Of a DNA stretch of 64,000 bases, positions 23,150 through 60,327 are shown one piece after another; position 1 is the first letter of the stretch; the number at the start of each line of letters is the position of its first letter. The notes beneath the pieces are model-generated. The model was not told where the DNA came from and did no database searches. It saw only the letters and a list, made by a program, of their open reading frames with translations. Source of the stretch: Schmidtea nova (taxonomy: Eukaryota); contig CM097882.1 in assembly GCA_044892505.1 (NCBI GenBank), forward strand, positions 495,566,001-495,630,000, in the 5' to 3' direction. The position numbers and the translations under genes were made by a program.

Positions 23150-23874
23150 CAACAATGATTACAAACTAGTACTATTATTTACACTAACAAAAATAATGTG
23201 AATATAAAAACTTGTAATAAATTTATTCATTTGTATTGTGCAACTTGTGTAGTTGTTTTACTTTAATGATGTCATTAAACTTTGATTGTATTTCCGTAGA
23301 ATATATTCTTTATATTTCTTGTAAATGATTATCACTCAATTTTGATCTTAATTTCGACTTATTTATGCTCATAATTGAAAATGTTTTTCGCAAATATATG
23401 TGCTCCTAAATAATGAAAACATTTATTGAGCATGTTTTCGTATTTTCTGATAATTCACGCATGATAATCTTTTATAAAAACAATTAAGATATTGTTCCGA
23501 TAAGAATTCTTAGCGTCGATATTTTCCTGTAATTAAATTAATTCAAACTGTATGTCTTCAGAAACGTCACGCGGATTGCAAGAAAATGGATCTGAAAATA
23601 AAATGTAGTTGTCCGCATGACTCTTAAAATCATCAAAACGTTTGTCAAAATCTTCTAACAAACTCTGTATGATTTTGTTATACTTTTCCGATTGAAGAAT
23701 AACTGATGCCTCGGTATTTTCCTTTACTAATATTCCACATGTTTCAAAATGACAAAATTCACCAATTTGGAACTGTTCTTGTAATAAATGAAATTTTCTT
23801 TCCGTGGAATTTACATACCCAAGAAGATCACAAATAAGCTTACCATTACCTTGCTGTTTTAAATTTAATTCGTT
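23150..23874 (-). pseudogene. C-terminal half of a second SPIN/GTF2IRD2-like hAT transposase (left of the LTR insertion)
   Basis: Reads NELNLKQQGNGKLICDLLGYVNSTERKFHLLQEQ...FDKRFDDFK...FSDPFS, continuing the right-hand half across the TSD; later stops and frameshifts. Confidence 0.85.
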
Positions 23875-24389
23875 TGCTGGGATTATGGGTGGGTTTTTAA
23901 GTAATTCAAATAAATTATTAATTATTAATTGAACGACTATCGATGAGTACGTATACTAGGGATTTCCACGCCCATAACCATACATAACATGACTACTACA
24001 CGCGTATGCCCTTGACTATTCCCTACTAGTCAAGTTGGTACTGCATACGGTGGTGGAAAAATGATGGGCAGGTGAGCTTTGTTACCAAAACTACTCCCCA
24101 TTTATCTTCCCGCGGGTCCTTGCTGCCGATAGAAGGTCTTACGCATTTACATTCTAAGGATGTTCGTTTCTTACTGCATTTTATACTACATATCCTTATG
24201 ATCTATCATACGCTTTTCCCAATGACTTTCCTTAATTGATCTACAATGTAATTAATCAGTCTCGGCGTAGAAATGGTCGGTTTGAGAAAATTACGGATGC
24301 GGTTTTCTATTTCGATGATTTCCGTGTTGTTAATTTAATTTTATTTAGTAACCTCGCCCGATGAGAGACAAAATTCACACACAAATACT

Positions 24390-24395
24390 TTTATT
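24390..24395 (-). terminator. Candidate LTR polyadenylation signal AATAAA (copy at 49393-49398)
   Basis: AATAAA 40 nt after the stop of the 194-aa LTR ORF, followed by a GT-rich tract (gtatttgtgtgtg). Confidence 0.5.
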
Positions 24396-24435
24396 AGAAT
24401 ACTAAAACAGGTTGTTATTTTACATGGATGTTTTC

Positions 24436-25020
24436 CTAAGCGAATTCCAGACTAATCTCCTGGATTAACTCTGCTTCGGTTAAGGAGTTCAAGTGGTGGA
24501 TTTGTTCGTCCAGGCGCTTTGCAAATTCTCGGCGACGACGACGCTGTCGCGATCCCATTCGATGTTTTCGAAGCTGTGGGTTTATGATCGGTGCTGACGC
24601 TATTGTTCTCGGGGAATCACTGAGAAAAACAGGCAAATCTTCCGTTGTAAGAGAGGGGGCCATGATGATTCCCTCTTCCGTCCCGCAAGCGACATCTTGG
24701 TGGGTGCATTGTATCCAGCGCTGAGCCGTGATCGGCCGGATTAGCGCTCGCAATTCGGAGTCGATGTAACTTCTTGTTACTGCGTTCAGGCAATTTCGGA
24801 GTTCTCGCTGGACGGCATCCAGTTCCAATTTGGTTGTAGCCAATGCTTCCTGCACTCGCTCGAGTTTTTTCGACTGGTCCTTCATCTGTTCGGGCGAGAA
24901 CCACTTCGCTTTCAATTCATCATTGGCGACCGTGAGTCGCTTGATCTGTCGCTGCTGGTCCCTCAGCTTTCTCTCTTGAATTTGTCCCATGATTTTCTTC
25001 GAATTTTCTGAAGTCGGCAT
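24436..25020 (-). CDS. LTR-encoded 194-aa protein: coiled coil plus Arg-rich motif (identical copy 49439-50023)
   Basis: GC-rich ATG-initiated ORF inside an AT-rich LTR; heptad N-half; RKHRMGSRQRRRRREFAKR. Confidence 0.65.
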   Translation of the reverse strand: MPTSENSKKIMGQIQERKLRDQQRQIKRLTVANDELKAKWFSPEQMKDQSKKLERVQEALATTKLELDAVQRELRNCLNAVTRSYIDSELRALIRPITAQRWIQCTHQDVACGTEEGIIMAPSLTTEDLPVFLSDSPRTIASAPIINPQLRKHRMGSRQRRRRREFAKRLDEQIHHLNSLTEAELIQEISLEFA

Positions 25021-25338
25021 GTTGTCTGAAGATTATAACGATAAATTCACTGGAGGGCCTATCAACAATGTTATTTTATTTAAACAACTATTATTATTAT
25101 TAAACGAGATGTATACTAATGTTTTTAATTATTGATTTCTTTGCAAAATTATTTAACTATCTAATTATTGAAGGCTCAAAAGATTTACTGAATTAACTTG
25201 AGATTATTAAATGAATTTCCTAATGACTATAACAACTACAATACTAAAACTACATGACAACACTATAAACAAAATGAGACACTTCAGAATTTTTAAAAAA
25301 CATTTATTAAACTCAAAAATAGGTGGCCATTTATTCAA

Positions 25339-25815
25339 TTATCCATCTCCGGTCATTTTTCCCCGATACGAAAATATAGATTTAATTTGCAAATTTGTGT
25401 GGATTCCCATGCTATTGGACGAGGCTTGCTGGAAGCGGATTCTCTCAGCTTCTCGAAGGGGTCGTATGGCTGTATTGAACTTGAACCCCAATTCCTTGAA
25501 GGTAGAGGCTGGAATGAACCCCCAATAAATGACACATCTCGGGAATCCACCTTTGTCCAACATCATGATGAACCAGGCGGCGTGCCATGATTCGAATTCC
25601 TCGTCTGGAATGATTGGCCAACTAGCGCATCCCCGGTACCAGACGTGGTGCCGTGGATGGTCCCATACTGTAAATGGACAGGCGGTTTCGAGCTCTCGGC
25701 GCCATGCCCACATTTTTTGATGGATTTGCTGTAAAATCTCGAAAGGAGCCGGCTTTAATGGGCTAACTCGGGCTCGTTCTTGTCGTTTTTTGATAGTGTA
25801 TCTATGCTTAGTCAT
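25339..25815 (-). CDS. LTR-encoded 158-aa Trp-rich protein of unknown function (copy 50342-50818)
   Basis: GC-rich ATG ORF set off by AT-rich spacers; same strand as all element genes. Confidence 0.5.
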   Translation of the reverse strand: MTKHRYTIKKRQERARVSPLKPAPFEILQQIHQKMWAWRRELETACPFTVWDHPRHHVWYRGCASWPIIPDEEFESWHAAWFIMMLDKGGFPRCVIYWGFIPASTFKELGFKFNTAIRPLREAERIRFQQASSNSMGIHTNLQIKSIFSYRGKMTGDG

Positions 25816-27345
25816 GATTCCAAAACGATGCTAAATTTTATAATAGTTACAATTTACATCAATAATTAATCATAGTAAATGTTATCTCTCATCGTGATAC
25901 CCTTATTATTTGCCTACCCCTTAGACCTTAACTGAAATCAAGGGAAAACTGTCGATCGTTACGGTATGCATTACTCTCGTATCTACTTGGATTTATCTGT
26001 TTACGATCAATTTTATAGTCGAAGAAATGGTGATTTGTCTGCTTGGATTTTCAAAATATTGATACCTCAAAACGGAAGCTCTCTCACGTCATGTATCCCT
26101 AGCTTATTCGAAAACGCTCTTGTGTACCAAATGCGGTCGACATAATTTTTCTAAGGTTTATTAGACGTTTATCAAACAGCTGTGCTGTGGTGAGGGTGAA
26201 AAATTGTGCCTCCTCCCGGTTAACAAATTCTTTCATATCTTTAGGCTTTATCAAAAAATTATCGTCCCCTCTGTAGCTAAAATGATCAGAAATTAATTCC
26301 CCGGATTTGTTGGGTGTCCCATGTGCAAGTCTCAACCACTACTAACAAAATTAAGCTTTACTATTTATTTACTTTACCGTGTGTGGAGCCCTCGAGCACC
26401 ACGCCACGGACGGACACCTTGGGAACCTAAAGCTCCCAACGGCGCAAGATTAATATGATAGTTTAAATAGTTTAAATATAACATAAATCATAATGAGATG
26501 AATAATATATTATAATATGATAATGACATATGAATACAACATCAAACAATGTACCAAAAATACCTCAATTGAATTCTGAAAATTTATTGATCAAAATCGG
26601 TCTAAACGGTGATCGTCGTCGGGGCAATGTGCAATCTAATGTGAATTTTTAGTTAACGTCTAAAATTCAGTCTACTAAAGTCTCACTCTAGTCAAATGTC
26701 TAGTCTACCAAAGTCTGATTTTTTGAAAAATCTGATCAGTATTTATACTGATCAGTCGTGTCTAGACTGACCAATCAGGTTTGGCCAGTTTCAGGGTGGT
26801 TTTTCATTATTGTTCTTGATTCTAATTAATTTTTATTTTTTAGATTGTATTCTTCCTCGGAGGTCCGGTTTTCAAAAACAATTATTCAATAACAAGTACT
26901 TTTATTTGGTTTTAATTATTATTATTTGTATTTTATTTGTTTTTAGATGTCTCCTGGGCCCGTTAATATCTATAAATTCATTTATTTTTATTTATAGCTT
27001 GTACTTAGTTATTCTATATTTTTACTATATTATTCCTTTCTTTTAATAAATAAATATTCCCCTTTTTACCCTATTTTTCTCTTTTTTGTTTTAATTAATC
27101 TACTTTTATTTCACTGTTCCCTCTATTTGGCTGGCCCAACATCACTCGGGGACCCCTAAAATTGCGTCCCGCAATTAATTATACATTTACACCTATATCA
27201 TCATACATAAAAATTAAGCAGATAAATGTCAATTTACATATACACAAAGAATCACGTAAGGTGATAGATTTTATACGTGAGCACAAAGTCATATTATTGT
27301 TAAATGTAAGTGGATCATACATAAAGTGAATGTAATATATCAGTT

Positions 27346-27918
27346 TTACACAAGCTCTTTGATTTCATGATTGGTATTGGATTGGATTGGGGTTCTTTTG
27401 CTGATTGTTCGTAGTTCGTAGTGGCTTTGGATTCGGTTTAGGTGTTTTCTCATTCGCTTTTGGGTTCTGATGTCTTGTATTGTTGTTCGATTCAGGATGA
27501 CATGTTTTTGTTTTAAGATCTTCACTCGGTATGATGTTATGAGGATTGTGATCGCGATAATGGTCACGCTGAGTGCAAGGATTATTATAATTGCGATGAT
27601 CCATTTTTCTTGATATTCTATCTCTGCTTGGGCTAAGCTTTTTATGGGTTCTCGACCTTCTTTTAGGGTTTTTCTGATTGTTTTCAATTTGATTCGATGT
27701 TCATATAGGACCTGTTGAAATTTTTCATCGTTTGGGTTGTCTGATGTTATCTGTTGAAGTTGGGTGATTTCTTGTGTTGCTTCGCTGATTAGTTTATCTA
27801 GTTCTTGATAGGTTTTCTCGGGTAGGGCTCGTAGCTCCTTCTCTGTGAGTTGAAGATCTTCTCTTTGTAGGGTGATTGTTATTAGGTATAGGAATATCGG
27901 TATTCTGAGCTTTTTCAT
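27346..27918 (-). CDS. Accessory 190-aa predicted membrane protein (signal-like N-terminus, coiled coil, TM)
   Basis: MKKLRIPIFLYLITITLQ hydrophobic start; WIIAIIIILALSVTIIAITILITSY TM followed by a basic tail. Confidence 0.75.
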   Translation of the reverse strand: MKKLRIPIFLYLITITLQREDLQLTEKELRALPEKTYQELDKLISEATQEITQLQQITSDNPNDEKFQQVLYEHRIKLKTIRKTLKEGREPIKSLAQAEIEYQEKWIIAIIIILALSVTIIAITILITSYRVKILKQKHVILNRTTIQDIRTQKRMRKHLNRIQSHYELRTISKRTPIQSNTNHEIKELV

Positions 27919-27999
27919 ACTGTTTTCTTTACAGATAGATCAATACAATTTGACACTACATTCATACAATTATTTACAAAAATATATTTTCCGCTTTAT

Positions 28000-29061
28000 T
28001 TACACAATCGTCTCGTTTGGTTCGTAGAAACCTTCGTCCTGAGGCTCTACTTGGTTCGTGGGGAGTGGTATCCAAACAACCCTGCTCCTCCACATTTCGA
28101 CTTCATCTCGATACATGTGAGATATCTGGATCTCCTCGTCCAGCAAATATTCTAGGTAATTTGCTTGTTCTGTTAATGTTTCTATTTGCTTCTCTAATTC
28201 GATTACTTTTGTCTTTTGTTCGTCTTCCTTCATCATTTTTGTTACGGCTGCCGTTATACTTGCTTCTTTGGGTATTACTGATACTGTTACTCGTTTCTGT
28301 TTCAATTCTTCGTTTTCTTTCATCAAATTCGTTAAATTTTCCTCATAACTTTGTTTCTCTTCCTTTAACCTTTCTCTGGTTCTTTTTAGCTCTATTTTCT
28401 TCTGGGTAATCACTCCTTGGTAACCATTTATATCTCTCTTCATCTCTTCTTCTTTCTGATTCCATATTCCGGTGAGCATAGATTTCAGTTGTTCTTGATT
28501 AGCTAGTTCTTCTCCCATTCTTTGAACTTGATAGGTTAGTCCTTTAATTTTCTTTGCTTGTTCGCGGATAAATTGCTGTCTTTTTGTATTCCATCTTTTA
28601 TTTAGCACTTCCTGGTTGATTTTTTGCTCTAATTCGTCTTTTAGTTCATCGATCTCTTTATATAATTTCCAGTCATCACTATAAGCTGTCCTTTCTATTA
28701 TTTCTCTAGCTTTTTCATAAGATTCTTTCGCTTCTTTCTTCCAGTATCTTGCTTGTTCTGTAATCGAATACATCTTGTGTTCAGCTTCCATCTGCTGTCT
28801 GTCTCTTTCCTCTCGTCGCTCTTTCATCATTCTCTGGTAATATTCCTTTTGTTGTTGTAGCATTTTGTATACTTCTTCTACTTTTTCTCGACTTCTTTGA
28901 TTTGATCTTTCAGTTTCTTTTAATAATTCGGCTTGTCTTTCTACCTCTTCTTGCTTTCTATAATATGCATTGACCAATATTTCTATTTGTTCTAGATGAT
29001 CGCTAATCGCTTCTGCTTGATGCGTCGTAATTTCCTGTAAGCATACCTCGATATTTCCCAT
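28000..29061 (-). CDS. Accessory 353-aa long coiled-coil protein
   Basis: E/K/Q/R-rich heptad sequence over nearly the whole length; ATG preceded by TTATAG. Confidence 0.8.
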   Translation of the reverse strand: MGNIEVCLQEITTHQAEAISDHLEQIEILVNAYYRKQEEVERQAELLKETERSNQRSREKVEEVYKMLQQQKEYYQRMMKERREERDRQQMEAEHKMYSITEQARYWKKEAKESYEKAREIIERTAYSDDWKLYKEIDELKDELEQKINQEVLNKRWNTKRQQFIREQAKKIKGLTYQVQRMGEELANQEQLKSMLTGIWNQKEEEMKRDINGYQGVITQKKIELKRTRERLKEEKQSYEENLTNLMKENEELKQKRVTVSVIPKEASITAAVTKMMKEDEQKTKVIELEKQIETLTEQANYLEYLLDEEIQISHMYRDEVEMWRSRVVWIPLPTNQVEPQDEGFYEPNETIV

Positions 29062-29174
29062 TGCTATAATTACAGAAAAAAAATTTTAATCGGTTTATAT
29101 ATCAGTTATTTTTGTTTATATAATAATTTTTGGGTAATTAACTGTACATATTATTTACATGATCACTTTCCTTG

Positions 29175-30557
29175 TTACGTCAACCATCCTTTTCTATCCG
29201 CTTTCTCATTCCTTTCCATTTCTATGTATAGGGTGTCTGCATATAATCGTTCCCATAGGCTTTCTTTCGTTATAAACATCGGTTCTCCCGCTGCTAATCC
29301 ACATTCTGTGGTTGGTTTCTCGCTTGTACTCGCATGTTTCTCTGTCTCAAAGAATTTTTCCACTGGTTTTGTTACACTTCTGATTCTTACAATGACTCCT
29401 ACTTTCAAGGGCCATTCTACTAGGTCGTCGTATTCTCCTTTACATAGCGAGAAAAATATTGACACATGTGTTCCTCGTCCTCTTCCGTCTCCATTTGGGT
29501 ATAGCTTCAATCTCACTTTAGCTCCGTTTCTCCATAAATAAAATGGTGGGCTTATTACTGCTGTTTTCGTCATATTTCTGGCCTCTGTTAATTTGTTTCT
29601 AAAATCTGTCACTTTCCACACATATGGTGCGATTGGTAACTTTTCCTCGGTATCCTGGGTGAGTTTGTTGTACTGGATTTTCATTCCTTTAGCCAGTTCT
29701 TCGATAGCTTTTATCTTTTCCTCCATCTTTTCTCGTGTTAGTTCGAATTGCTCTCTGGTTTCCAACAGTAGGTTTACCATTATCTTGTGTGACTCTATTT
29801 CTCTTTCTAATTTTTTGATTGTTTGTTCGGTTTCCTTTGTTGCTTCGTTTGTCATTTCCGCATGCTTTAGCAATGCTTCCTCCAGATGTTGTTTCATGGT
29901 TTTTTGCGTTCTTTTCTCCATACATCCCTGTTTGTTATAAGGGCATTCCCTTGGTTTCTCCGTGCACACTTTCCAATGTTCTTGTAATTTTACTTCTACC
30001 GTTATCTCGCATTCGTTTGAACATATTCCTACATATTGTCTACATACTTTCTCCTCTTTTATATTCAGGTGTTCTTCTTCGATCTTTCTCCTCGTTTCTC
30101 GAGTTCCACAATATTCGCATAGACTTTCCTCTTCTTTACATTCATCTTTGTGCTGCTCTTTATTCTTTATAGTTATTTTTTGTTGGCATTTGTTACATTC
30201 AGTTCTCTTCTCTTCGCAGTTCTCCAGATGGTTCTCGAGATCGCGTATTTGTCCTTGCCATATACATGGTTGATTTATACATTCGGTTTTCGTGTTCATG
30301 ATTTCTCTCTGAGTTGCTCTATCTGGTCCGGTTTCTTCGAATTTTATTTGTCCTTCTTTGCATTCTGGACATTCTGGTGGTCTTTTCCTACTTAACTCGT
30401 GTATGCATTTGGTACATACTCTGCATCCGCATAAGGTTTGTCTTGGTTTCAATATTATGTTTTTACAATTTACACAAGTGAGTCTCTGACTCCATTTCCT
30501 GTTCTCGGCTCTCAAAATTTCGATTATCCGCTCTTCGGCTTTTCCTTCTGTATTCAT
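29175..30557 (-). CDS. Intronless TRAF2-like protein (RING, TRAF zinc fingers, coiled coil, MATH)
   Basis: RING CVNC..CGCRVC..C..CPEC; DRATQREI; CIWQG; MATH WKVTDF..SPPFY..LYPNGDGRGRGTHVSIFF..WP. Confidence 0.93.
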   Translation of the reverse strand: MNTEGKAEERIIEILRAENRKWSQRLTCVNCKNIILKPRQTLCGCRVCTKCIHELSRKRPPECPECKEGQIKFEETGPDRATQREIMNTKTECINQPCIWQGQIRDLENHLENCEEKRTECNKCQQKITIKNKEQHKDECKEEESLCEYCGTRETRRKIEEEHLNIKEEKVCRQYVGICSNECEITVEVKLQEHWKVCTEKPRECPYNKQGCMEKRTQKTMKQHLEEALLKHAEMTNEATKETEQTIKKLEREIESHKIMVNLLLETREQFELTREKMEEKIKAIEELAKGMKIQYNKLTQDTEEKLPIAPYVWKVTDFRNKLTEARNMTKTAVISPPFYLWRNGAKVRLKLYPNGDGRGRGTHVSIFFSLCKGEYDDLVEWPLKVGVIVRIRSVTKPVEKFFETEKHASTSEKPTTECGLAAGEPMFITKESLWERLYADTLYIEMERNEKADRKGWLT

Positions 30558-30648
30558 TCTACAATGATATATACACTTGATTTGTTATCTATTTTTTGAT
30601 TTTTCTTGTTTTTGTTTTTACATATTTACAATTTTTCGCTTTATTTAT

Positions 30649-31005
30649 CTACGGCTCGTTTGTTGAATCTGGTTCTGGGTCATTTTCCGATCTGTTTATT
30701 GCCCAATTTGTCCATCCATCCTCTGCTTCTTCTGTCTCTCCCATTGTTAAACGGTCTATCTCTATTGCTTGTCTCTGATTTATGTCGCTCATCACTTGAT
30801 TCTCTCTGGTAAGTTGCGTTATCAATCTCTGTTGCTCCTCGATTCTGTGGAGTTGTTCAAAACTATTATTATAACTTTCGGATAACAAATTCTGTTTCTC
30901 AATTAACTGATTTTGTAGTGAGTTGATTGTTCGTATTAACATGTCACACTGGGCTTTCCATCGCATAGCCATAGTAGTTTCTGCTATTTCTTCCTGTTCG
31001 TTCAT
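30649..31005 (-). CDS. Accessory 118-aa coiled-coil protein
   Basis: ATG ORF between the pol stop and TRAF; Q/E-rich heptads. Confidence 0.65.
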   Translation of the reverse strand: MNEQEEIAETTMAMRWKAQCDMLIRTINSLQNQLIEKQNLLSESYNNSFEQLHRIEEQQRLITQLTRENQVMSDINQRQAIEIDRLTMGETEEAEDGWTNWAINRSENDPEPDSTNEP

Positions 31006-31130
31006 TTTCTAAATTATATACATTAATCGTTTTCTCGATTTCTCTTTTTATATTTTTATAATATCGATACCCATACTATTACGGTAATGCATTGTTATTT
31101 ACACTATTATTTACAGTCATATCCCGCCTC

Positions 31131-34100
31131 CTATATCACCATCACTGTCTTTCCTTCGTATCGCTCTTCATCTTCTATTTGTCTCCAAAATTCTTTACCT
31201 TTCGTCCTCCTTTGGAATTCTTTATGTACTTCTTCCGGTAATTCTATACTGTAGTTCATAATCTTTATATCTGGCCAATGTGTTATTGGTTTCTTGTTGA
31301 ATACATCATATATCCATATTATTAATAATACTGTTATTACTGGAATAGTTGCTGCTAGTATTCCTAGACCAATTAGTTCTCTAACTTGTTTGTTTACGTC
31401 CATCTTCGTAATTTCACTCTGGTTAATCATTGGTCCGTATTGTCCCTTTAGTTTATTTAGTAGTTGTTCTCGTTCTTGTTGTTTTCTTTTAACTTCTTTA
31501 ATTACTTCTTCCGGCGTCCATCTTGCGTAAGGGTCTATTACTACTTGTTCCGCGTCCATTTGTTTCGTTGTCTGACTTAATTCTTTAAATTCGAGTTTTC
31601 TCACTTTCCCTTTGGACGTTGAGTTTACCGGTGTGTAGTACGTTTCGCATCTTTCCTGCTGATTTCCCAATATGTCCGTCTTTTCTATCGCACATATCTC
31701 GTATTCGCTATTGAATTTCAGGTTCCTGATACTTATTTCCTCTTTTCCTTTCACGTTTCCACAGTCTCGTGGCTGTCTTTCCCTTTGTTTCTGAACTATT
31801 ACCCAACATATTTCTAACGTTTTATTGTCTATTCTCCATAGTATAAGAGTTGCTGTAGTATTCTTTTCGGTTTTTATTTGTATTTCTTGGTTTTTCTGTT
31901 GTCCATTAGGTTTAAAAGTAGTGGTATACCTCGCTTTTCCTTTGTTCCGTTGTCTTCTGCTTTTTCGCGTTGTCTTTCCAATTCTTGTTCTGGTGGGTGT
32001 TTTATATAATTTGCATTCCAATTCACTTACTGTTATTTTGTCGCTTTTCCTGATCAGGCATATTTCGTACGTTTGATTGCTTTCTAATCCTTCGATCTGT
32101 ATTGTGGTTGTTCCTCTGTTTGTTCGACATTGCGGCGGTGTATTCTGGTTTGTTTTCTTTTCCTGCTTCTTCCAGCATACGCCTTTGACGTCCGGTTCTA
32201 TTCCGGTTAACTCTAACATTATAGTTGTTCTCCGTTTGGTGCGTATATTTTTTCTTCTTCTTCTTATGAACTTTATTGTTTCCCCAGGTTGAAATGTTTT
32301 ACAAATTGTCGTTCCTTTCTTGTGTCTTTCTTTTTCTAGTAAACATAGTTCATACGTCCTGTCTGCTTTTACTTCTGATATCTTGGTTACTTTATTTGTT
32401 TTCCTTTTCCGACTCGTCTTTATTTCGCTTACGCCAATTTCTTCGTTGTTTCTGGCCCAACACTTTGGGTTGGTATTTTGGGTGTCGTTCATCTCTGTTA
32501 CTGCCATTGTGTCAATGTCTATCCCTTCTTCTAACCGTTTTAACATTGTTAATATGAGTGCTAAACACAGTAATTCTGTTTGGTAGGTCACTCTTTCGGT
32601 CTCGTTTGTGGTTACTCTTGCTTCGGGCCTGTCTATGGTAATTCGTATAGTTGGCGTTGTTCGTCTGTCTATTGTCTGGGGTTTCTTGTTTTTTGTTCCT
32701 TGTGTCTCTGTTCTTCCACACTTTCCTACGACATAGTCTCCTTTGGATGACTGCTGTACTGTTATGGTTACTTTGGGCGTTAGGTAGTTTGCACATGCGA
32801 TTGTGTTGTGTGATCTTGGATTCTTTTGTTTTCTGATGGTGCATATTTTGTACCAAGTATCTAGCTCTAAGTCATCGATCTCTATGATTTCTTGTTCGTA
32901 TTCTGAGATCTTGCAATCCATTGGACTATTTTGTCCCGATATTTTGTCCTTTTTTGACCAACATACTCGTTCGATTCCTTTTGCGTTTCCAATTTGTATT
33001 GTCGCTCTTTCCTCACATATCATTCCTTGAGTTGGACTAATTAAGGTCATGATTACCGTTAGTAATAATAGTTCTGGTTTAAAGAATGGGTTTATTGTTT
33101 GTTTGTAGCTTGTTCTTTTTGCTTCGTTTTTATTTTTATAGTTGTTGTTTCTTTGTTTCCCAAATTCATTTTTCTTATCATTTTTCTCTGTGTCCCTTCC
33201 TTTCTCTTCACTGTCCTCTTCATCTGATAACTCATGATCCTCTGGATTTTCTCGAGTACTATCGTCGTCGTTTCCTGTATTGTCGCCTCCCCTTTGGTCG
33301 TTGAAAATGTCGTCCTCGACATTAATTGCTTCTATCATTTTTTCATACGTTATGGTTGTGAGTATACTTGCTTCATATTCTTGTGTTACTGCCTGCTTAG
33401 GTATTTCCTTATCGGTTAATTTACAATCTAGAATCTCTTTCTTGGCTTTTATCCAATTATTAAGGTACGTTTTCATTAGTTCTTTCCATTTGTCCGTACG
33501 TTCTGTTTCCTTTGGGTTGTTTGTGAATCGCAAATCTTTTCTTCTCATGAAGATTTCTATTATCTTTGGCCATTTGTTTATTATTAATGCACACTTTATA
33601 TATAAATTTTGGCCTTGTTCCATGAACTCGTTGATCCTAAATGCTGGTTCATTGGTGTTTGGGTTCATCCAATTGAGTATTGCTTCGGTTAGTTCAGCGT
33701 TATGCATCATGGAATGTACGCTAGCTTTTTTAACTGTCCTTGTAAGGTATTCTATTTCCTCCTGATTTGTGATTGTTTTTATGAAATTTATCACCTCCCA
33801 ATTGTGCGCTAATAACGCTACGTCTAGTATTGAGCTGTCTTTGTTAGTTCTTCCCATGAGTCCTGCACCTGCTTCGTACAGTTCCTGTAACACTCGGGTT
33901 TTTGTGTTCGCTCTTGCTGCAAATATCATGAGGGTATCTCCCTTTTTATCTTTCATGTTCATGTCACTTCCGCAATCTTGCATCAACCGTGCAATTTCGA
34001 CTACCCTCCTCTCTTTTCTTGCTCGTAAGGCTCTATGTATTGGCAATACTCCATTCTTTGTTAATAAGAAAGTCACTGGCATTTCTCTTTTTATGATCAT

Positions 34101-37100
34101 CATATCGTTTTCATTGTAAGTTCCTTCCGCGTATGCGTGTACCTTTTCCACAATTGCTCCGAGTATCTCCAGTGTATGTTTAGAATTTTCGAATTCTGGT
34201 AATAGTTCTTTTGCTTTGTCCTGTATCGCATCTAACCTTTCTTGATATGGTACCTCTGCGCTGAAAAGTGGTGTCAATTTCCTTTTGCTTTCTCTTTCCT
34301 TTTGACTTAGGAATTGTTTGCATTTTTCGGGGTGGTTTAATATGTCTATTAGTTTGTCATACTCTTCCTCCACCGTTTTGTATTTATCCTGAAAATTGGA
34401 TATATCTTTGTAAGTTATCGTCTTGGTTAGCGATTTTGCACACCATTCCCTAATTTTCCTGAATAATGCTTCTTTTTCACTTTCGAATTTACACTCCTCT
34501 TTGTTTTTGGAAATTGTGATATTTCTTCTGTCCAATAATATTAACAGTGTTTTCTGATCACAAACTAATTTTAATAGGAATTGTAATAACGCGTTTTGTC
34601 CTTTACTGTATACTTCGTTTATATTTAATACCCATGTATCATTTTCGGATCTTTTCCATTTTATCAGCTTGCGTATTGTTTTGCAGTTACCGATTTTTAT
34701 TGCCTCCTTGATTATATCACCTTTGATCAGTTCGTCTATTTCCCAAGTGGCCTTCTCGATTATTTGTTTGAGCATTATCTGATTTGAGCTCCATATTGCG
34801 TGATTCAAGACTGTTTTGTTTTCTCTATCGCGTTCCGTCCAGTTGAAATCGGCATTTATCAAAAGGTCTATTATTGCTTTATCCGATTTGTAGATGGCTG
34901 CTACCATTAATGGTGTTTCTTGTTCGCTATTCCCAAAACCAAGGTGTTGGTTTGTTTCCTTTGCGATTTTTAGAAATTCTTTTACTCTCTCTACTTCTCC
35001 CCATTTTATGGCGTTATGTAATGCTGGTTGTCCTCCTATGTCTTGTAGTGAAAGTATTTCTGGAATTTTCTCCAATAGTTCTGAAATGACTGGTTTTGTT
35101 GGTAGTCCCCTTGCGTAATCACTAATTATCAATTGTATATCTCTTAATATATCGTCTCTGACATGCCATTTTCCCATTATTTCTCTGGCTTTTAGTACAA
35201 TTTCCTTGTTTCTTTTTTCTTGTTGCTTGTTTTCTGCTTCGGTACTTTCATCGGTTGTTCTGAGCATATTTATCCTGGCTGTCTGGGATCTTGTTATTAT
35301 TCGTTCTTCTGGCACTGTGGTTATTGTTTTTGGTACTTTCTTACATCTGCATGTATTAACGTATATTGGTCGTATCAATGGTCGATTAACAAGTTTTACC
35401 TTCACATTGTTTTCCTTTTTGTATATAACTTCGTAAGGGCCTTTTCCTGGTCTTTGTAGTTTTTTAACGGTTCCTGGTATTATTTCTGGGGTTTCTATCA
35501 TTACCCAATCTCCGGGTTTAAGATCATTTGTTTTAACATTTTTCTTTTGATCGTGTAGGTCCTTGTAACTTTCTTGATAAAACTTTATGTTTAGTTCTGC
35601 TGTCTTCCATATCTCTTGCATTCGTTCTTTGAATTTGGTGACGTAATCATCTTCCTCCATATATTGAGACAAGGGTGGTTGATATTCAAGATCTATTGGC
35701 ATATTGCATTCCCTTCCATACATTAATTGAAATGGACTCAATTTTGTTGCTGCGTGTATCGACATTCGGTATGCCATTAGACATAGCTTTATGTACTCAT
35801 CCCAATCTGTTTGGTGTTTGCTTACATAATTGGATAACATTCGAATCAATGTGCCGTTAAATCTTTCCGTTTGTCCATTAGTTTGCGGATGATATGGTGA
35901 CGTTCGTAATTTGGCTATTCTGAAGTAATTTGTTACTTCATCTAGTATTTCGCTCATAAAATTTGTTCCTTGATCTGTTAGTATTTGTTTCGGGGTTCCG
36001 TATCGACAACATATTTCCTCTACTAAAATTCTTGCTACGGTCTTTGCTTTTTGATCCGGCATCGCAAATGCTTCAGGGAATTTAGTCAAATAATCCGTTA
36101 TTACCAATATATATTGATTCCCGTTCAAACTTTCTGGCAATGGTCCTATTACATCCATCGCAATGGTAGTCATTGGTTCCGCTGGTATTGGCATGGGTTT
36201 TAAAGGATTTTTCCATTTCTTCCCACTATCCTTTCTTGTGGCACAAGTTAAACAGTTCTTTATCCATTCCTTTACGTCTTCGTCCATTGTTGGCCAATAA
36301 TATTTTTGTCTCATGCGATCTAATGTTTTCTTATCGGACATGTGTCCTCCCAACTTTCCGTCATGGTATTGAGTTATTATCTCTTTTCGTCTATTACTTG
36401 GCAGACACATTAATCGTTTTTCTCCATCTTGTATTAACAACCATCCTTTTTCTATTGTGTATCGATGTTGGTATTTCCTCATGTGTTCTTTTAACTCCGC
36501 ATTGTCTTTGAATACATCCATATTTCGTGAGCTTAGGAATTCTATGATGGGTTTTAGTTCTTTATCCTCTTGCTGATCTTTCTTTAACTCACAGAAATCC
36601 AAATCCTCTGCTATCACTATGCATATTCTTTGCACTTCTGGATCTGTTAGTTCTGGAAACGTCAATCTTGACATACAATCCGCGTTGGCATTCGCTTTCC
36701 CTGATTTGAATTTTATATCTGGTGAATATTCTTGTAATTGCATTGCCCATCTCATTAATCTGCTGGATGTTTCCTTGTGTTGTCCTAGCCATACAAGTGG
36801 TTGATGATCCGTGGTTATGCATATAACGTGTCCCCACAATAGATATTTAAAGTGTTTTATTGCTAATATTATTGCCAATGCTTCTCTTTCCGTTACTGAA
36901 TAATTCTTCTCGTGTTTCTTGAATGTTCTGCTATAGTATCCGATTACTCGTTCTTTACCTTCGTCATCATATTGTCCTAACACTGCTCCTGCTGCATATC
37001 CACTTGCGTCGGTTGCGAGTAAAAATGGCTTCTTGAAATCCGGGTGAACCAATATTGGTGCAGTTATTAGCTTATCTCTCAATGTTTCAAAGGCGGTTTG

Positions 37101-40100
37101 TTGTTCGCTTCCCCATATGAATGATACGTCTTTCTTTACTAGCTCTTGGATTGGTTTTGCAATTCCTGCGTAATCCTTTATGAATTTCCTATAATAACCG
37201 CATAATCCGAGAAATTCTTGGATCTGCGTTATCGTCTTTGGTACTGGACATTCTTTTACTTTATCAATGTTTCTGGGATCTGGTTCCTTTCCTTTTGCGG
37301 ACACAATATGTCCTAAGAATGTCACTTTCTCCTTTGCCCAATCGCATTTCGATGGTTTGAGTTTGAGTTTCCATTGTCTCAATCTAACAAATACATCTCT
37401 GATATCTTGGATGTGTTGTTCAAATGTGCTTGAGTAGATCAGTAGGTCGTCAATGTAAACCATGCATTGTTTTATGCCGTGGGTAACGAAATTCATACAT
37501 CTTTGAAATGATGCTGGCGCATTGGTTAGTCCGAATGGCATTTTCCTAAATTGGTACAAGTCTCTTCCAATGGTGAAAGCAGTTTTCTCTTTGTCTTCCT
37601 CCTTCATTTTAATTTGCCAGTATCCGCTTTTCAAATCCAATGATGTAAAATATGCCGCTCCTTGTAATGTCAATAACATCTCGTTGATGTCCGGTAATGG
37701 GTATGTATCCCGTTTTGTTACCGCATTTAATCTCCGATAATCAATACAAAATCGTTGTGTTCCGTCTTTCTTTTTCACCATTACAACTGGGAATTGCCAC
37801 GGTGAGCAGCTTGGTTCAATTACTTCCGCATCTAACATCTTCTGTACTTCCGCTTCTGCTACCGATTTTTGCGCTTCAGCTAACTTGTATGGTCTTAACG
37901 CAATAGGCGTTTCGTCTGTTAGTGGAATCGTATGTAGTGTGACGTCGCATGTCCCTAGATCTAAATCGGATGCTGCGAATATGTCTTTATATTCTATCAG
38001 TAATCTTTCTAGCTGCTTCTTTTGATCCTCATTTAATAGTTGGCTATCAATGTTCCAAGTGGGTTCCTCCTCTTTTACTCCTTCTTTTATTGGTATTTCG
38101 ATATCTATCATTGGAGTTAGTTTACCCAATCTTTCATTTTCATAAATTATTTTATCCTCTTCATCGAAATTTACTACATTTATTGGGATTTCTCCGTTGT
38201 CATTCGCACTCACTAGTCCCCTTGCCATTGGCAACGACTTTCTCTTTTCAAATCTTTTACTGGGTTCAAAGATCATGTCACCTTCTATTGTAGGATCTAT
38301 TTTTACGAAACATATTTTCTCTCTCCGTGCTGGTACGATTATTTGTTTCGAACTTGTTACTTTTGCTTCTATTGCGCATATCTGTCCTGTCCTATCCTTC
38401 AATCTCATTGTTCCCAGGTCAATAACTATTTCTTTAAATAATGCTGGCATCAGATCCGTGCCTATAATGCATGGTACGCTTAGTGCTGGTATTACTGCTA
38501 CGTATGTTTCGATTTCCGTGTTTTGATGTTTTATCTTTACCCACCATCTTCCGGCAACTTCTACTACTTCTTTACTGCATGCTATTACGTGAACGTTGGT
38601 TCTCTCAATATCCCGTCTTTGTTCTTGTGGTATCCATTTTATATCTATTGCTGAGATATTTGCTCCTGTATCAATCATCGCTTCTATTTCCCTTCCGTTA
38701 ATTTCGATTGTTGTAGTTAATACTGGACCGGTGTTTGATGACATTACTGCAATTGTATGTGAGTCTCCTTGCGGATCTACGCTTCTGCACCGTCTCGTTC
38801 TATAGTCTTCTGGTATCATAGGATATATGTTTGTCATCGGCATCATTTGCATTGTATTTTGTCTCATCCCTGGTGTTGGTTCTTGGTACATGGTTGGTGG
38901 GGGTGCGTAACACTTCCACATTTCCGCTGGATTCTTTTCGACATACTGTGGTACTTGATTTTTAACTACTTGACCTCCTTCGTTATCATCATCATCGTCG
39001 TCACTGGAATCGTCTTGGGTTCTGTACCCTTTCATTCTTTCCCATAGTCCTTTTCTCTCTCTCTTTAGTTGTTGTCTTGCTTGCTCGTTATTCATTATCT
39101 TTTTAAATTTTCGTCCCACCTCTTCATCGGTTCCTTTCATTTTTGCCAGTATTTTTAGGAGTCTCTTTATTCGGTGAATATCTTTTGAATGACCGTGTAA
39201 TACCATTGTTTTAGCCAAAAATGGTAAGAATCCTACCACCAATTTCCAATTTACTTTCTTTTCTCTTTTATAGATGTCAAAACAGGCTAACATTTGCGTT
39301 ATTATTACCCGTATTATTTGTATAATTAGTATAACACCAAGTATTCCTGCCATCATTTGTCCAAATATTAAAAATCTTCCCCACATCGCTTTCATCATGT
39401 TTTCCGTTGCCTTCTTAAAGTGGGCTGGTGACAATAATAATTCGTAATTTGGTCCACCTTGGTAATTTGTTCCTCCTGTTATTGTTACAATGCTGGATAA
39501 CACCGCTTCTCGTCTTGCCGGAAATAGTATGTTTTGTCTTGCTGCTTCTAAATCCTTTGCACTATAGAATCCCATATTGCTTACATCTACGTCTTTAAAT
39601 TTTCTTCCTTTTGATAGTTGCATTAATTCAAATTCTCTTGGTGCTGGTACCTCTGTTCTTGACGGAAACATAACCCAATTTCCGTCTGGTTTTTGGTATA
39701 ATGGTCCATATGCGTTGCTACAATTGAAAGGGTTTGGTTCGAAACTTACTGGATTTATGATTCTTGTCACTGGTTGTACATATCTTACTTTCCCTTTATA
39801 TTCGATTTCTAGTTCGTTAGTACACTGACCTGGTTGTAGTTTTGTCATTGTCGCTACCTTCGCATTTGTCTTTTTACATATGTATACGTACATGACCTCT
39901 CCGACTACTCTTCCAAAATGACCTTCTCTTAATGGTAATAGTGGCATTGCACTATCCGGGTTTGTGATTGCTACCGCTAGTTTTGTCTTTAATATTTCCC
40001 TATTTAATATGCAATCGTTGTTTATTAAATCGTAATACACTTTTTGTAGTGACGCTTGTCCTCTATGGAATAGAAAATCCATTTTATTGTTCATGTAAAG

Positions 40101-43100
40101 GTGTAATTTAACATCGTTCGTGTGTACTTTGCGTTTCGCACTAGGTACTTCTTGTTTTGATACAAAAATGCCGGGGTAGTTGGTTTCCAACATGGCTACT
40201 CCGCATTTCAAGGCTGTTTTTCCTTTTACAAACCTCATTCCGATATCTGCATCTGAGGTAATTAGTACCGTTGGTGTATTTCTCATTTTAATTTGTTTTT
40301 CTTGTGTTCGGGTTTCAATCTTTTTCTCTCCCCGTACGGTGTCTTGAAGTATTTTTCCTCTTGCTGCCTCGTCTTCTTCTTCCTCTTGGAAGGTTTTCCC
40401 TTGTATCTCATCGAATTCTGCTTCCTTTAACAGTTGTAGTTGACATTCCTTTCCTCGTATCTGGTATGTTAAGGTTGACATACCGGTTTGGCAAGTGTTT
40501 GACTCGATTTTGCACATGGGCAGGGTTTTCATTTCTCCCGTTGTTGGATCGAAGAATGCCTCGTACGTCTTTAATTCTACTGTATAGGTATCTATTACCA
40601 CTAGGTTTGTTGCTGCTACTCCGAATATTGGATATGTTGCTCCTTGGCAGTACCCTTCTCCTCCCGTAATAGCTCCTGCTACATAATATGTTTGTTGTAA
40701 TATTACTCCCGTTTTTCCTCTTATCTTTACTCTATCTCTAGTCTCTACTTCTCCATGTTTGAATAATTTTTCACAGTCTTCTCCTTGCAGCATTACCGAT
40801 TCTCTTTCCGTTCCTGGCATCACGATTGCTGAATAATGGCGGTGCCCACAATAAAAAGCAAATCTGGTTTTATAAACTTTGCATTCTCTGACCATTGTTC
40901 TTATCAGTTCAGCTTCCTGATATACGTGGTATAATTGTCTCTTTTTTAGTGTTTTTAGCTCCGTTGGGGTTGCGTCCTTACATTGTTCTGTCCCTCGTAG
41001 TGAATATTTCTCACCTAATGCCATTTGATCACAATCGAATACTTCAAATGCTGTTGCTCCGTCAGTACTAATCATCCATATTAACATCATCATAATGATA
41101 GAACTCAAGTTTAGTGATGATTTCCCGTTTCCTGTTCCCGACTTTTCCTTTTCCAATTCTCCCAATATCTCTTCGAATTTCCTTTTCATATTTTTGGCTT
41201 GGTTTTTCTTTTGGTTCGTTTTTGTGAATGTTTCCCATCCTCCTTTACTGATGATGTACGGTTCTATTTCTTTCTCTATAATTTTGGCTGTATTCTTTAT
41301 ATGTCTTTCGAGTGCTGTAGGTTTCAGTCGACCTCTACTCAGTGTCAGCAGATTGTAAATGGTGTATGCCATAGCTATTAAATATTTGTTATCCGTCTCT
41401 GCTCCTTCCGTTAACTTCTTTATCAACATCGTGGTTCCTTGCCAATCTAGGTGGTTTGACCTTGTCTTCTCTTTTATTAGTTCTGGTAGGATTGGTGCGA
41501 TGGCGCTATGCAGTGATTTCGCCCTTTCGCTTATTTCATTTATTCTCCACCATTTCTTTAATTCCGGATCGATTATTGCCAGTATTTCCATTAACATCTT
41601 TGATATCCATTCCTCGCCTTGGTATGTTTGTGTTGTTTCTTTTTCTTTCGTTTCGGCTATTTTATTTAGTTTCTTTAAACACAAATCCCATTGATCCCGT
41701 CTTTTTTCCTCTCTTGATTTTATAACTACATTTGCTGGATCTATCTTGGGTCTACCTCTAGGTCGTTTATCCATTGTCGTGCCCGTTTCTACTAATCTTG
41801 ATTCTCGTCCAGTTTCTTCTGTGACGTCTCTTGGTTCATTGGCTCTTTCTTCTAACCATCTTTCCATTTCTTGTGTGAATTGTACATTTTCTACATTTGC
41901 CCTCCTTGCTTCCTCTTCTGCTATTTCATTTACTTCTTCTATTATTATTTCTTGTTCGACTTCATCTTCGGTGTTGGTTACCGGTATTGCTGTTGGTAAT
42001 TCTTGAATTCTTTCGAAAATATTATCATCTTTCTCTTTTGTTAGCTCTATTAACTCTTCTAACATATCATCGCTATCTGTAAAAATTTCGTCTACATCGT
42101 ATGGTTCTGGTGGTGTTCTTTCTCTTGTCTCTCTTGGTGTTGTTCTAGCTTGTTCTGAGCTTGTTCCTGGAGTCATTACCGATTTCATTGGGCTCGGCGT
42201 ACTCATACTTCCTTTTGGTTTCTTTTCTTCTTTCAATTTCAATGGTTGGCCTACTATTGCTGCCACTGTCAATGTATTTGCGATATCTAATTGCGCTGGC
42301 GTTATTCCAATTTCCAAGTTGTTATCTAATGATCGTCCTTGGTGTTGTAAATGGAATGGTGGTTCATATCTCAATTTCTTTTTAATGTCCCGAACTTTCT
42401 CCGCTATCCCTACCCAAAACTCTTCCTTTTCCTGGTTCGGATATACTATTCTTAGGTGTACTTTCTGTGGCGATTCCTGCGAGAATTCTTGGTTTCTCCA
42501 TTTTTTAATTACGTGATCCAATTGTTCTGGACACCACTCGTTAACTCTTTTGTATTCGGCGATTGCGTTTGCTACTTTACGCAGGCATGTTATGTCTTCT
42601 CCATTAACTACGAAAAAATCTGCGAGACCTTTTACTACTTTTCTCTTGCCGTGCGCATTGGTTTTTAATATTTCGACAAATTCTTCTGTTTTTTGTTTCT
42701 CTCTTTCCAACCACATGGTTGTTGTTTCAGGTCCGTCTAAATCCGCTGGCATGGCTTTTCTTGTTACCATACAGACTCTTCCGGTTTCCGGTTTGTGATC
42801 GTCTTCTATGCCTATTTCATATTCTTCTTCGTATTCACCTGCTTTTGGTTCCCAACATTTTCCTCGTTCGTTCCATTGTTTTTCTACAGGTGTTCGTAAT
42901 CGTCTGTTGAGATTGAGTTCTTCTAATACATCTTCCCATTCTGGCCAAATCCGCCAATTTCGATAAATGTCTACTATTCGTTGTAATTTATGCACAACTT
43001 CTTTTTGTCGTTCCCGTTCTCTTTTCTCATCCTTAGCAGCTTCTCTTGGTGTATCGTCCATTCTGATAACGTGGATGGTTTGGTGATTATCCCATATACC

Positions 43101-43928: not shown

Positions 43929-44000
43929 GAATTTCCGATAGTGTTTCTTGTCGATGAATTCCTCATTATATATTACTTCTAGTGCGTTATCTAATAATTT

Positions 44001-46514: not shown

Positions 46515-47068
46515 CGGGATTACTTTTGTATACTCAATTTTCCTGTCTTATCGTATTCCGATTCTTTTCTTCCTTGGTTGCTTGGTTTGGTTTGATTGAT
46601 TTATCTAAAATACAAATGTCACTTCAACGATACTCTATTGTTATCGTTGCGCTTTTATTCCCTTTTTACGGGACTTCTCATTACTGGGTTTCTATTATTT
46701 TTCCCCATTCCCAGATTCCCCTTTATTTAAGTCTATTTAAATTATCTATATACTAGTCACAATTATCTATTTAGTCATAACAATTATCTATCGGTTATTA
46801 AAATACATCAATTATTTTTCCCGCGGTCTCCCAATTTATTTGTCGTTCGAACGCTCTAATTCCCTGAGTCATTTGACTCGATTATTATTTTATCATCTCT
46901 TTATCTTTCTCTCTGCTAGCCTCTAATTATTAATTCTGCCGGTCTTTCCGGTCAGCTCTTATTTCTCAATTCTACTTGCATGCATTATTTTAGGTCGCAT
47001 AATCAGCTTTACTCGCATTTCTCAATTCCTGGTGCGCACTATTCTCATTATCGTCGACGATCACAACT

Positions 47069-47587: not shown

Positions 47588-48060
47588 CTTTTCCTTAACC
47601 GGTTAATCGTAATTCTTAACTTCGCTAGCGACTACAATTTCTCAGCTGAGTTCTCTCAATTTCATGCGAGCTGATTATGCACCTCTTATTTTTCTCTATA
47701 ATTCCTCGATTCTTTGTTTTATTACTAATTCTTTCGCTGATCAGTCATAATTCAATTTTTATTATTTTCTCTGCGCGCATCTTACCTCATCAGGGTTTTC
47801 CCTATTTCTCTCCCCAACCAAAATATACAAAAAGATCGCGTTGGTCTACTAATGCGGGATGTGGTGATCAATCACATCACAAAAGCTTTCCAACATTTGC
47901 GATTGGCCCCTTTCTATATACCCCGAGTGGGTTGATCAACTGGTACCTCCCAATGGGTGCTTAACGGACTACTTGACAGTAGCTCAAAAATTAATTAACA
48001 TTGTTGATTGCTCCCCTGACTTTGTCATTCGATACAATATATTAACACTCTAAATATTTA

Positions 48061-48522: not shown

Positions 48523-48853
48523 TTCCTAGATAATTTATTTAATTACTGTGTTAATATTATTCGAAAAGTAGTACTGTGTTTCGTTTCTGACAGTTTACAG
48601 CCTCCCCCCGTGTTTCGGTAAATTGTCGTCCCGACCTGTTATTTATGAATGCATTTATTAATTTATCTATTTCATTGTGTTGTTGTTTTTATTTACCCAG
48701 TTTGTTTAATTCTCTGTTTATAACTGTCTATTTCTACGCAACTCGCTTTCGTCTCGATTACTCTTTCGGTTACTATTTCTACTCACAAAATTCTGATTTT
48801 TTAAATTTCTCTGTTGTCATTGGGTTCACCTTTTCCGCATAAAAACAAAGTTG

Positions 48854-48871
48854 ATCCCGGCTGAGCCCCCA
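48854..48871 (-). promoter_or_regulatory. Primer binding site, tRNA-Pro type
   Basis: TGGGGGCTCAGCCGGGAT, 6 nt after the 5' LTR; 16/18 identical to the classical tRNA-Pro PBS TGGGGGCTCGTCCGGGAT. Confidence 0.85.
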
Positions 48872-48877
48872 AATTTA

Positions 48878-51800: not shown

Positions 51801-52144
51801 GGTTTTTCATTATTGTTCTTGATTCTAATTAATTTTTATTTTTTAGATTGTATTCTTCCTCGGAGGTCCGGTTTTCAAAAACAATTATTCAATAACAAGT
51901 ACTTTTATTTGGTTTTAATTATTATTATTTGTATTTTATTTGTTTTTAGATGTCTCCTGGGCCCGTTAATATCTATAAATTCATTTATTTTTATTTATAG
52001 CTTGTACTTAGTTATTCTATATTTTTACTATATTATTCCTTTCTTTTAATAAATAAATATTCCCCTTTTTACCCTATTTTTCTCTTTTTTGTTTTAATTA
52101 ATCTACTTTTATTTCACTGTTCCCTCTATTTGGCTGGCCCAACA
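48878..52144 (-). repeat. 5' LTR (3,267 bp)
   Basis: Direct repeat of 23875-27141; sense strand starts TGTTGGG and ends CCCAGCA; followed by the PBS. Confidence 0.97.
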
Positions 52145-60290: not shown

Positions 60291-60327
60291 GATGATTGCG
60301 ACAGACGATTGATGATTTGATTGGGGA

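Follow-up and report, generated by a model that had tools for sequence, protein, structure and literature searches.

Complex retroviruses such as HIV-1, the foamy viruses and mouse mammary tumour virus (MMTV) use one splice donor in the leader of their long terminal repeat (LTR) and several acceptors before accessory open reading frames (ORFs), and they carry LTR-encoded genes. Complex-retrovirus splicing has been outlined in general terms (PMC4402516), and the Burro elements of planarians have been described as giant, with long LTRs and an internal region of up to 25 kb (PMC6431247). In planarian stem cells, Burro-type elements are reported to be both abundant and actively represented in RNA (PMC6884822), the BIR-RING gene of Burro1 has been reported, at second hand, to aid regeneration (PMC13465017), and a TRAF expansion has been described in planarians (PMC6109357). 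Here we analyze a stretch of 64,000 nucleotides from Schmidtea nova (GenBank assembly GCA_044892505.1, contig CM097882.1, positions 495,566,001 to 495,630,000; hereafter the window), in which four ORFs flagged by an initial annotation start directly behind a pyrimidine-AG (YAG) trinucleotide. These four ORFs are the accessory block of one LTR element of 28,270 bp, which runs from 52144 to 23875 on the minus strand. With a probability of about 0.8, the YAG sites serve cis-splicing from an LTR leader, which genomic fossils support for two LTR ORFs and which we infer for the four flagged ORFs.

Acceptor-like sites in a giant Burro-type element

The element has TG...CA termini, a 4-bp target duplication (AACG), a primer-binding site, LTRs of 3,267 bp and an internal region of 21.7 kb, and it is both giant and young (Table 1). 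Its sense-strand gene order is two LTR ORFs (158 and 194 aa), a RING ORF, a gag-pol-ankyrin frame and four accessory ORFs (acc1, TRAF, acc3 and acc4; 118, 460, 353 and 190 aa). Pfam matches in the long frame follow the Ty3/gypsy order of protease (PR), reverse transcriptase (RT), RNase H and integrase (IN), at positions 1763, 2075, 2321 and 2534-2705. The best database matches of the polyprotein are gypsy-type polyproteins (45-49%), and a mononegavirus-type fusion glycoprotein (PF24664, E=5.5e-68) lies upstream of PR, with gag and pol in the same frame. Matched to published descriptions, the element is a Burro-type Ty3/gypsy element. One stop interrupts the long frame in the window copy; of 12 other copies read, 11 are open past that point, several of them being broken elsewhere. 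The TRAF start is present in at least 90 genomic copies, and the TRAF ORF has 92 genome matches. A sister family (B) shares about 78% protein identity with the window element (family A). A Pfam search of 13 window proteins gave no match to a BIR domain, which is present in a more distant related family (the BIR family).

All six acceptor-like motifs quoted in the initial annotation were found where it had placed them, on the minus strand. The distances from AG to ATG are 3 (31005), 1 (30557), 2 (29061), 1 (27918), 3 (RING, 48522) and 7 nt (62273), so that the geometry, which had been called uniform, is tight but varies. The statement that every accessory ATG directly follows such a site held for the four flagged ATGs (1-3 nt), but not for the two LTR ORFs, which had not been listed and have gaps of 15 and 5 nt, and the site at 27920 has a poor acceptor score. 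The motif before ATG 62273 is present as described, but it belongs to a different, unrelated, frameshifted LTR element of about 12 kb. In dinucleotide shuffles of each upstream spacer, the probability of a YAG within 3 nt of the four flagged starts was 0.080, 0.070, 0.056 and 0.072 (product about 2e-5), and 0.083 for the RING spacer, with the 3-nt cut-off picked after the data had been seen. The four YAGs match the window in all 29 other copies, and none of their 12 positions varies compared with 42 of 374 others, a difference that is not significant (P=0.38).

Acceptor quality was scored with a model derived from 32 short introns of host myosin genes; these were selected, by a length of 44-61 nt and by score margin, from 141 that were automatically inferred. 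Seven of the eight start-proximal AGs fall within the top 7% of 2,375 AGs, and among 333 non-coding AGs the eight rank 2, 3, 8, 9, 12, 16, 30 and 235. For acc4 there is an alternative AAG at 27927 (rank 89/333), and for LTR ORFa a YAG lies 4 nt before the ATG in 26 of 63 LTR reads, the window copy having GG there. The YAG-before-ATG pattern is a real feature of this element.

Table 1. Features of the element in window coordinates, listed in sense order.
Feature	Position	Strand	Remarks
5' LTR	48878..52144	-	3,267 bp; direct repeat of 23875-27141, 99.94% identical, 2 differences
Predicted promoter, reverse CCAAT box and TATAAATA	51743..51778	-	CCAAT 51778, TATA 51750
Predicted AUG-free leader exon, ~155 nt	51567..51720	-	first ATG after TATA at 51545
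Splice donor GAG/GTATTT	51561..51566	-	5' breakpoint of both junction copies
GC-rich two-hairpin island inside predicted intron	51372..51461	-	81-100% identical across family-A LTR types
YAG, 15 nt before LTR ORFa	50834..50836	-	window copy
LTR ORFa, 158 aa	50342..50818	-	no Pfam/Atlas match; homologues 26-83% identical
Acceptor TTCAG, 5 nt before LTR ORFb	50029..50031	-	3' breakpoint of junction copy L220/L247
LTR ORFb, 194 aa	49439..50023	-	no Pfam match; family B homologues 35% identical
AATAAA then GU-rich tract, predicted main poly(A) signal	49393..49398	-	from sequence; use putative
Structured RNA block, predicted U5	48958..49152	-	conserved across LTR types; 11/49 predicted pairs with compensatory change, 11 related sequences
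Primer-binding site	48854..48871	-	identical in 10/10 A/B copies; present in BIR family
YAG, 3 nt before RING ORF	48526..48528	-	rank 12/333; TAG in family A, CAG in B and BIR
RING-finger ORF, 153 aa	48061..48522	-	PF13920, E=9e-12
Acceptor-like TTTGTATTTTAG upstream of gag	46605..46607	-	identical in 17/17 A/B copies; homologous site in BIR family
Candidate AUU start, AAA-ATT-GA	46536..46538	-	invariant in 17/17 copies; use as start putative
gag - fusion glycoprotein - PR - RT - RNase H - IN - ankyrin frame	31131..46547	-	Pfam; single stop in window copy
Eight TGTANATA motifs	31115, 31103, 31022, 30630, 30575, 29159, 28004, 27978	-	all at four ORF boundaries, 27971..31115
YAG, 3 nt before accessory ORF 1	31009..31011	-	rank 2/333; kept in family B and BIR family
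Accessory ORF 1 (acc1), 118 aa	30649..31005	-	no Pfam match over cut-off; homologues 75% and 38% identical
YAG, 1 nt before TRAF ORF	30559..30561	-	rank 9/333
TRAF homologue, intronless, 460 aa	29175..30557	-	Pfam RING-like, zinc fingers, MATH; PDB TRAF2/3/5/6 matches
YAG, 2 nt before accessory ORF 3	29064..29066	-	rank 3/333
Accessory ORF 3 (acc3), 353 aa, E/K/Q-rich	28000..29061	-	75% and 29% identical in sister families; no Pfam match or similar-length database homologue
YAG, 1 nt before accessory ORF 4	27920..27922	-	weak, purine-rich context; rank 235/333
Accessory ORF 4 (acc4), 190 aa	27346..27918	-	one hydrophobic segment; no Atlas match
3' LTR	23875..27141	-	all LTR features recur here, at coordinate minus 25,003

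LTR leader, splice donor and junction copies

Genomic DNA holds two kinds of LTR in which the leader is joined precisely to a start-proximal AG. One element (L013/L135) has in both of its LTRs a leader ending in GAATTAG joined to AATC-ATG of ORFa, the 3' breakpoint being the YAG 4 nt before the ATG. Unspliced alleles (L226, L234 and L235) show TAG/GTATTT and TTTTAG/AATC at the two ends, with a GT-AG stretch of 798-801 nt between them, and their flanks match the junction copies at 138-140 of 140 and 297-300 of 300 positions. A second element (L220/L247) has, again in both LTRs, a window-type leader (51567) joined to the ORFb acceptor (50028), with the loss of 51566-50029 (1,538 nt). In genomic DNA, one donor is thus seen joined to more than one acceptor.

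These copies come from a scan of 97 LTR reads from 85 elements, of which 12 were read at both LTRs; 29 of the reads ended as early as about 900 nt beyond the start. The scan gave three large LTR deletions, and the third (L210) does not lie at splice sites. The presence of each deletion in both LTRs points to passage through RNA. The 4-nt microhomologies of the 916-nt region from leader to ORFa would allow 1,615 different products. That the same donor was hit twice independently, each time with a different start-proximal AG, therefore makes splicing the likely cause. The junction copies are likely to be reverse-transcribed spliced RNAs, as judged from their breakpoints; alternatively, they may stem from genomic RNA that was spliced inside its 3' LTR portion.

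The donor lies in a context that would suit a first exon. Transcription is predicted to start near 51720, downstream of a predicted promoter whose TATA motif occurs in 14 of 15 family A/B LTRs and is absent from two BIR-family LTRs; 85 of 86 family-A 3' LTR reads match the promoter. The AUG-free run measures 130-274 nt in 82 copies. In 82 of the 86 reads, GGTA occurs no more than 80 nt upstream of the first ATG; of the other four, two are junction copies, one matched another promoter-like site and one lacks a promoter match. The GGTA count alone is weak evidence, because GGTA is common in A/T-rich DNA. The T fraction around GGTA is 0.25 before and 0.57 after, and unrelated downstream sequences share an AUG-free run that ends in a GTA donor followed by T-rich sequence. 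The donor at 51566 was chosen by score before the first ATG. Together, the promoter and the AUG-free leader argue for a true first exon, without proving it.

Other candidates were rejected. A TATA-like site near 49188, paired with a donor at 49145 or 48829, was dropped as the promoter since the CCAAT-TATA arrangement upstream is far better conserved; its leader would hold 7-9 ATGs, the GT at 49145 falls within a stem and reads AT in one subfamily, and the GT at 48829 varies. For the GT at 51380, at the end of the GC-rich island, the sole genome copy without a following G reflects a point change. No conserved donor was found near the primer-binding site, which taken alone would favour spliced-leader (SL) trans-splicing.

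In the cis-splicing model, the YAGs would be alternative 3' splice sites, and one short AUG-free LTR leader would be spliced to them to give each extra gene its own mRNA. The donor would pick among eight acceptors across introns of 733 to 23,647 nt, and splicing would remove every upstream AUG. Each ORF could be an alternative last exon, or the RNAs may end together in the 3' LTR, and the UGUANAUA motifs after each stop may bind Pumilio or a similar protein. Gag-pol would be read from an RNA spliced at 46605, from the AUU at 46538 or the AUG at 46088; there are 46 ATGs between 49150 and the gag ATG, and none between 46604 and 46089. The AATAAA with its GU-rich tract after ORFb (49398) would give an R region of about 2.3 kb, placing the structured block (49152-48958) in U5. 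ORFa, ORFb and the two structured blocks are no more than candidates for Rev-like export of unspliced RNA or export of the constitutive transport element (CTE) type. Of the two routes to nested subgenomic mRNAs that the initial annotation put forward, cis-splicing from an LTR leader exon or SL trans-splicing, the first is thus supported by promoter, leader, donor and two exact donor-to-acceptor deletions in both LTRs, all of which concern the LTR ORFs. For the four flagged ORFs, the RING ORF and gag, we infer splicing from the same donor by analogy.

With RING, gag or any of the four flagged ORFs as its target, a splice would take out the primer-binding site and hence leave no reverse-transcribed copies. 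This fits the TRAF starts, none of 90 having a changed upstream context, and it means that DNA cannot test the four flagged sites. The TRAF result is uninformative, being expected under the model, as is the lack of any changed context at acc1 starts (total copies uncounted). Four junctions read in deleted derivatives do not break at splice sites, and in contigs from four runs of unrecorded kind (23700-35000), which show presence rather than absence, none of the 14 joints listed lies at a flagged acceptor. One derivative of 13 kb (L062-L064; G000:C2:219898703-219912139), with LTRs 99.97% identical, keeps the pol C-terminus and the four accessory ORFs, and no primer-binding site was seen after its 5' LTR.

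Several observations weigh against cis-splicing from the LTR leader. Both junction copies concern LTR ORFs and none the four flagged ORFs; to reach these, the donor would have to span 20-24 kb and bypass a good poly(A) signal (49398) as well as four acceptors that are closer. The junctions carry microhomologies of 4 nt (TTAG, L013/L135) and 2 nt (L220), and a template-switch deletion is possible for either. In the BIR family, 19 LTR reads revealed no LTR ORFs, matching promoter or donor, and the BIR accessory block nevertheless keeps the YAG pattern. Candidate donors in family B are weaker (scores 0.3-3.0), with no junction copy among the few read, and in one family-A LTR (A509) an ATG follows the predicted start by 22 nt. 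Acceptor 27920 is weak, no more than 5 of 8 stops are followed by AATAAA (background 24%), and the host splice model itself rests on 32 of 141 automatically inferred introns.

Conservation of the sites and alternative explanations

In family B, YAG is kept before acc1, TRAF, acc3, RING and both LTR ORFs; for acc4, two copies were scored, one with YAG and the other with none within 40 nt. The family B homologues of ORFa and ORFb are only 27-35% identical and their DNA is largely unalignable, yet YAG still lies 0-5 nt before the ATG, except for one ORFa entry, taken at its first ATG, without YAG within 40 nt. In the distant BIR family (26-42% identity), the AG-ATG gaps are 0, 2, 5, 1, 3, 3 and 17 nt, and for TRAF the gap is 26 nt at the first ATG and 1 nt at the second, apparently homologous one. 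The family B RING and ORFb frames likewise have an upstream in-frame ATG, yet YAG sits before the homologous ATG; we count these three cases in favor of splice acceptors. TAG and CAG replace one another between homologues and the phase varies (0, 1 or 2), which is what a non-coding leader should allow. In a smaller lineage that shares the fusion domain, YAG precedes the sole accessory ATG by 2-6 nt in six of the seven elements having that ATG listed, and no clustering of the TGTANATA motif was found there.

Related elements were also described in their own right. The smaller lineage (L108-L127, L181-L189) comprises elements of 15-19 kb with a single gag-fusion glycoprotein-pol frame of about 3,400 codons, LTRs of about 850 bp and one accessory ORF of about 480 aa. 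The BIR family (L171-L180; G000:C1:131.91-131.96 Mb and 350.76-350.81 Mb) is high-copy, with 150 BIR matches scored of 1,295 candidates, and the two loci read contain neither RT nor integrase; they carry RING, acc1, TRAF, BIR-RING, acc3 and three more ORFs, with the YAG and TGTANATA grammar.

The AGs might be incidental, arising by chance in A/T-rich spacers, as in-frame stops or as translation-start context; reinitiation or internal entry would then account for how the ORFs are read. The TAGs at 31009 and 48526 are indeed in-frame stops, and 67 of the 593 ATGs of the whole element (11%) have a YAG within 3 nt upstream. However, the TAG-CAG replacements and varying phase, the recurrence of the pattern in unalignable DNA of three families and the use of two sites as exact deletion breakpoints leave this explanation highly improbable. 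Internal promoters near the pol end or within the spacers, combined with another donor or with no donor at all, would be somewhat easier to reconcile with the locus; they drive env in Oikopleura Tor3b and Tor4b (PMC4402516). A TATA-like run in the pol-acc1 spacer is partly kept in family B, and TGTAAATA would then be a forkhead-type DNA site. Yet the spacers span just 81-125 nt, the motif occurs there 8 times in sense and once in antisense, two copies (TGTATATA) do not fit the forkhead consensus, and the conserved YAG would stay unexplained, so that we consider internal promoters very unlikely.

An operon deserves more weight, although we still regard it as unlikely: each spacer would be cleaved and polyadenylated, a host SL would be trans-spliced to the next YAG, and cis-splicing would serve the LTR ORFs only. 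The spacer lengths match flatworm operon spacing, with a median of 99 bp in S. mansoni (PMC12582326) and a peak near 100 bp in Macrostomum (PMC8629364), and a motif follows each stop. Planarians have SL trans-splicing, flatworm acceptors are often common to cis and trans reactions (PMC12582326), the Cer1 RNA of C. elegans receives SL1 (PMC3315495), and in the BIR family no donor was found. Against this, the window LTR has a working cis donor, every accessory ORF keeps its own ATG and three of seven family-A sites are in frame with an SL AUG; parasitic-flatworm SLs end in AUG (PMC12582326), and in Echinococcus 143 of 187 SL clusters are predicted to start at the SL AUG (PMC3510090). The host UCR14-enolase pair is not adjacent in this genome and thus provides no host spacer to compare. 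SL trans-splicing at the four flagged ORFs is therefore less likely than cis-splicing from the LTR leader, and a mixed cis and SL mode is possible, given how often acceptors are shared in flatworms.

Spacer motifs, a putative gag start and comparison with known systems

All eight sense-strand occurrences of TGTANATA in the element fall in the four spacers (shuffle mean 0.40; 0/5000 shuffles reach 8), compared with seven in family B (0.39; 0/5000) and eight in the BIR family (0.70; 0/3000). Across 29 copies, a single one of the 56 motif positions is variable, compared with 42 of 374 other positions (P=0.03). The core UGUANAUA lies on the RNA strand in untranslated sequence and is conserved. By its consensus it is a candidate, predicted Pumilio-type site. 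Reading its UGUA as a CFIm site is disfavoured by a planarian study that used sequencing to profile the positions of poly(A) (3P-seq), which reports that UGUA is not enriched and that CFIm59/68 are lacking (PMC5068929).

The open gag frame begins directly after a stop, 153-197 codons upstream of its first ATG, and the invariant TTTGTATTTTAG lies 54-58 nt before that stop. This gag acceptor was picked by eye, and its acceptor rank is thus circular rather than independent. The N-terminal extension is open, against 14 and 17 stops in the other two frames. Substitutions there are spread over codon positions (25, 27 and 34), which suggests modest coding constraint, and gag-pol may start at the AUU. 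Between the RING ORF and the gag acceptor lie three tandem-repeat arrays (47046-47615; units of about 30, 40 and 43 nt) whose copy number differs among elements, preceded by a strongly conserved block (48000-47790). One of 26 predicted pairs of the GC-rich island covaries, and Rfam gave no match within 46000-52200. The primer-binding site is presumably of the tRNA-Pro type.

The neighboring element (59398-64000, continuing in G000:C1:495630001-495638000) is an ordinary LTR element with 892-bp LTRs (99.4% identical) and several frameshifts; its ATG 62273 opens a broken third ORF after pol, behind TTTGTAG as expected for a spliced env-like gene, with no Pfam match. Elsewhere in the window are an RT-like ORF (863-2260) flanked by 165-nt inverted repeats (704-2358), a tandem array outside the giant element (17597-22076; units of about 850-1,020 bp with short ORFs), and two similar broken ORF pairs (13610-15423 and 52526-53354), which we assume to be transposase-like; the giant element adjoins the second. 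In the genome, insertions with several ORFs inside Burro-type copies (L173-L174, L074) presumably represent a Polinton-type DNA transposon, and dozens of dispersed intronless enolase N-terminal fragments (PF03952 matches in G000) with the same internal gap are probably transposon-carried.

More speculatively, and with considerable doubt, Burro-type elements may run a full complex-retrovirus programme, in which one LTR donor would serve an extensible array of at least eight single-gene last exons, built as YAG-ATG-ORF-stop-UGUANAUA-poly(A) modules under host Pumilio. The 2.3-kb R with two genes would be expressible even by solo LTRs, and gag-pol would come from a spliced, AUU-initiated mRNA apart from the packaged genome. 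If true, this module grammar would explain the repeated capture of host signalling genes such as TRAF and IAP. The 92 genome matches to the TRAF ORF suggest that part of the planarian TRAF expansion is carried by Burro-type elements. Our analysis provides base-precise donor and acceptor coordinates that can be tested in RNA-seq, the same grammar around the BIR-RING gene of the related family, and a candidate link to Pumilio.

Compared by description, the window element resembles Burro/GYPSM1 of dugesiid planarians in its size of about 28 kb, LTRs longer than 3 kb, a single gag-env-PR-RT-RH-IN-ankyrin frame, a mononegavirus-like fusion protein between gag and protease, and TRAF/MATH and RING genes (PMC6431247). 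It differs in that its TRAF is a separate ORF downstream of pol and its family lacks BIR, whereas Burro1 has a BIR-RING (B-IAP) gene; the related BIR family carries BIR-RING, as Burro1 does. Among the papers listed in literature searches, no title or abstract opening describes splicing of Burro accessory genes, and an earlier description is still possible. In Drosophila gypsy and Oikopleura Tor3a, also Ty3/gypsy elements, LTR-started RNA is spliced to an acceptor upstream of an extra ORF (PMC4402516); they have one extra ORF and a donor near gag, whereas the window element has an envelope-like protein inside the polyprotein and seven other putatively spliced ORFs. C. elegans Cer1, likewise Ty3/gypsy, skips consensus splice sites for its genomic RNA, and its short RNA is multi-exon and can carry SL1 (PMC3315495), in contrast to the window element, where there is no evidence of SL. 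Unlike complex retroviruses, the window element is Ty3/gypsy, with eight candidate acceptors over 24 kb, an AG that almost abuts the AUG, a predicted 2.3-kb R with two genes, and a cargo of host-like ubiquitin-ligase and signalling genes. The strategy would therefore be one known from complex retroviruses and env-bearing gypsy elements, and what would be new here is the scale on which it is used, along with a long R, conserved spacers of Pumilio type and a gag start without AUG.

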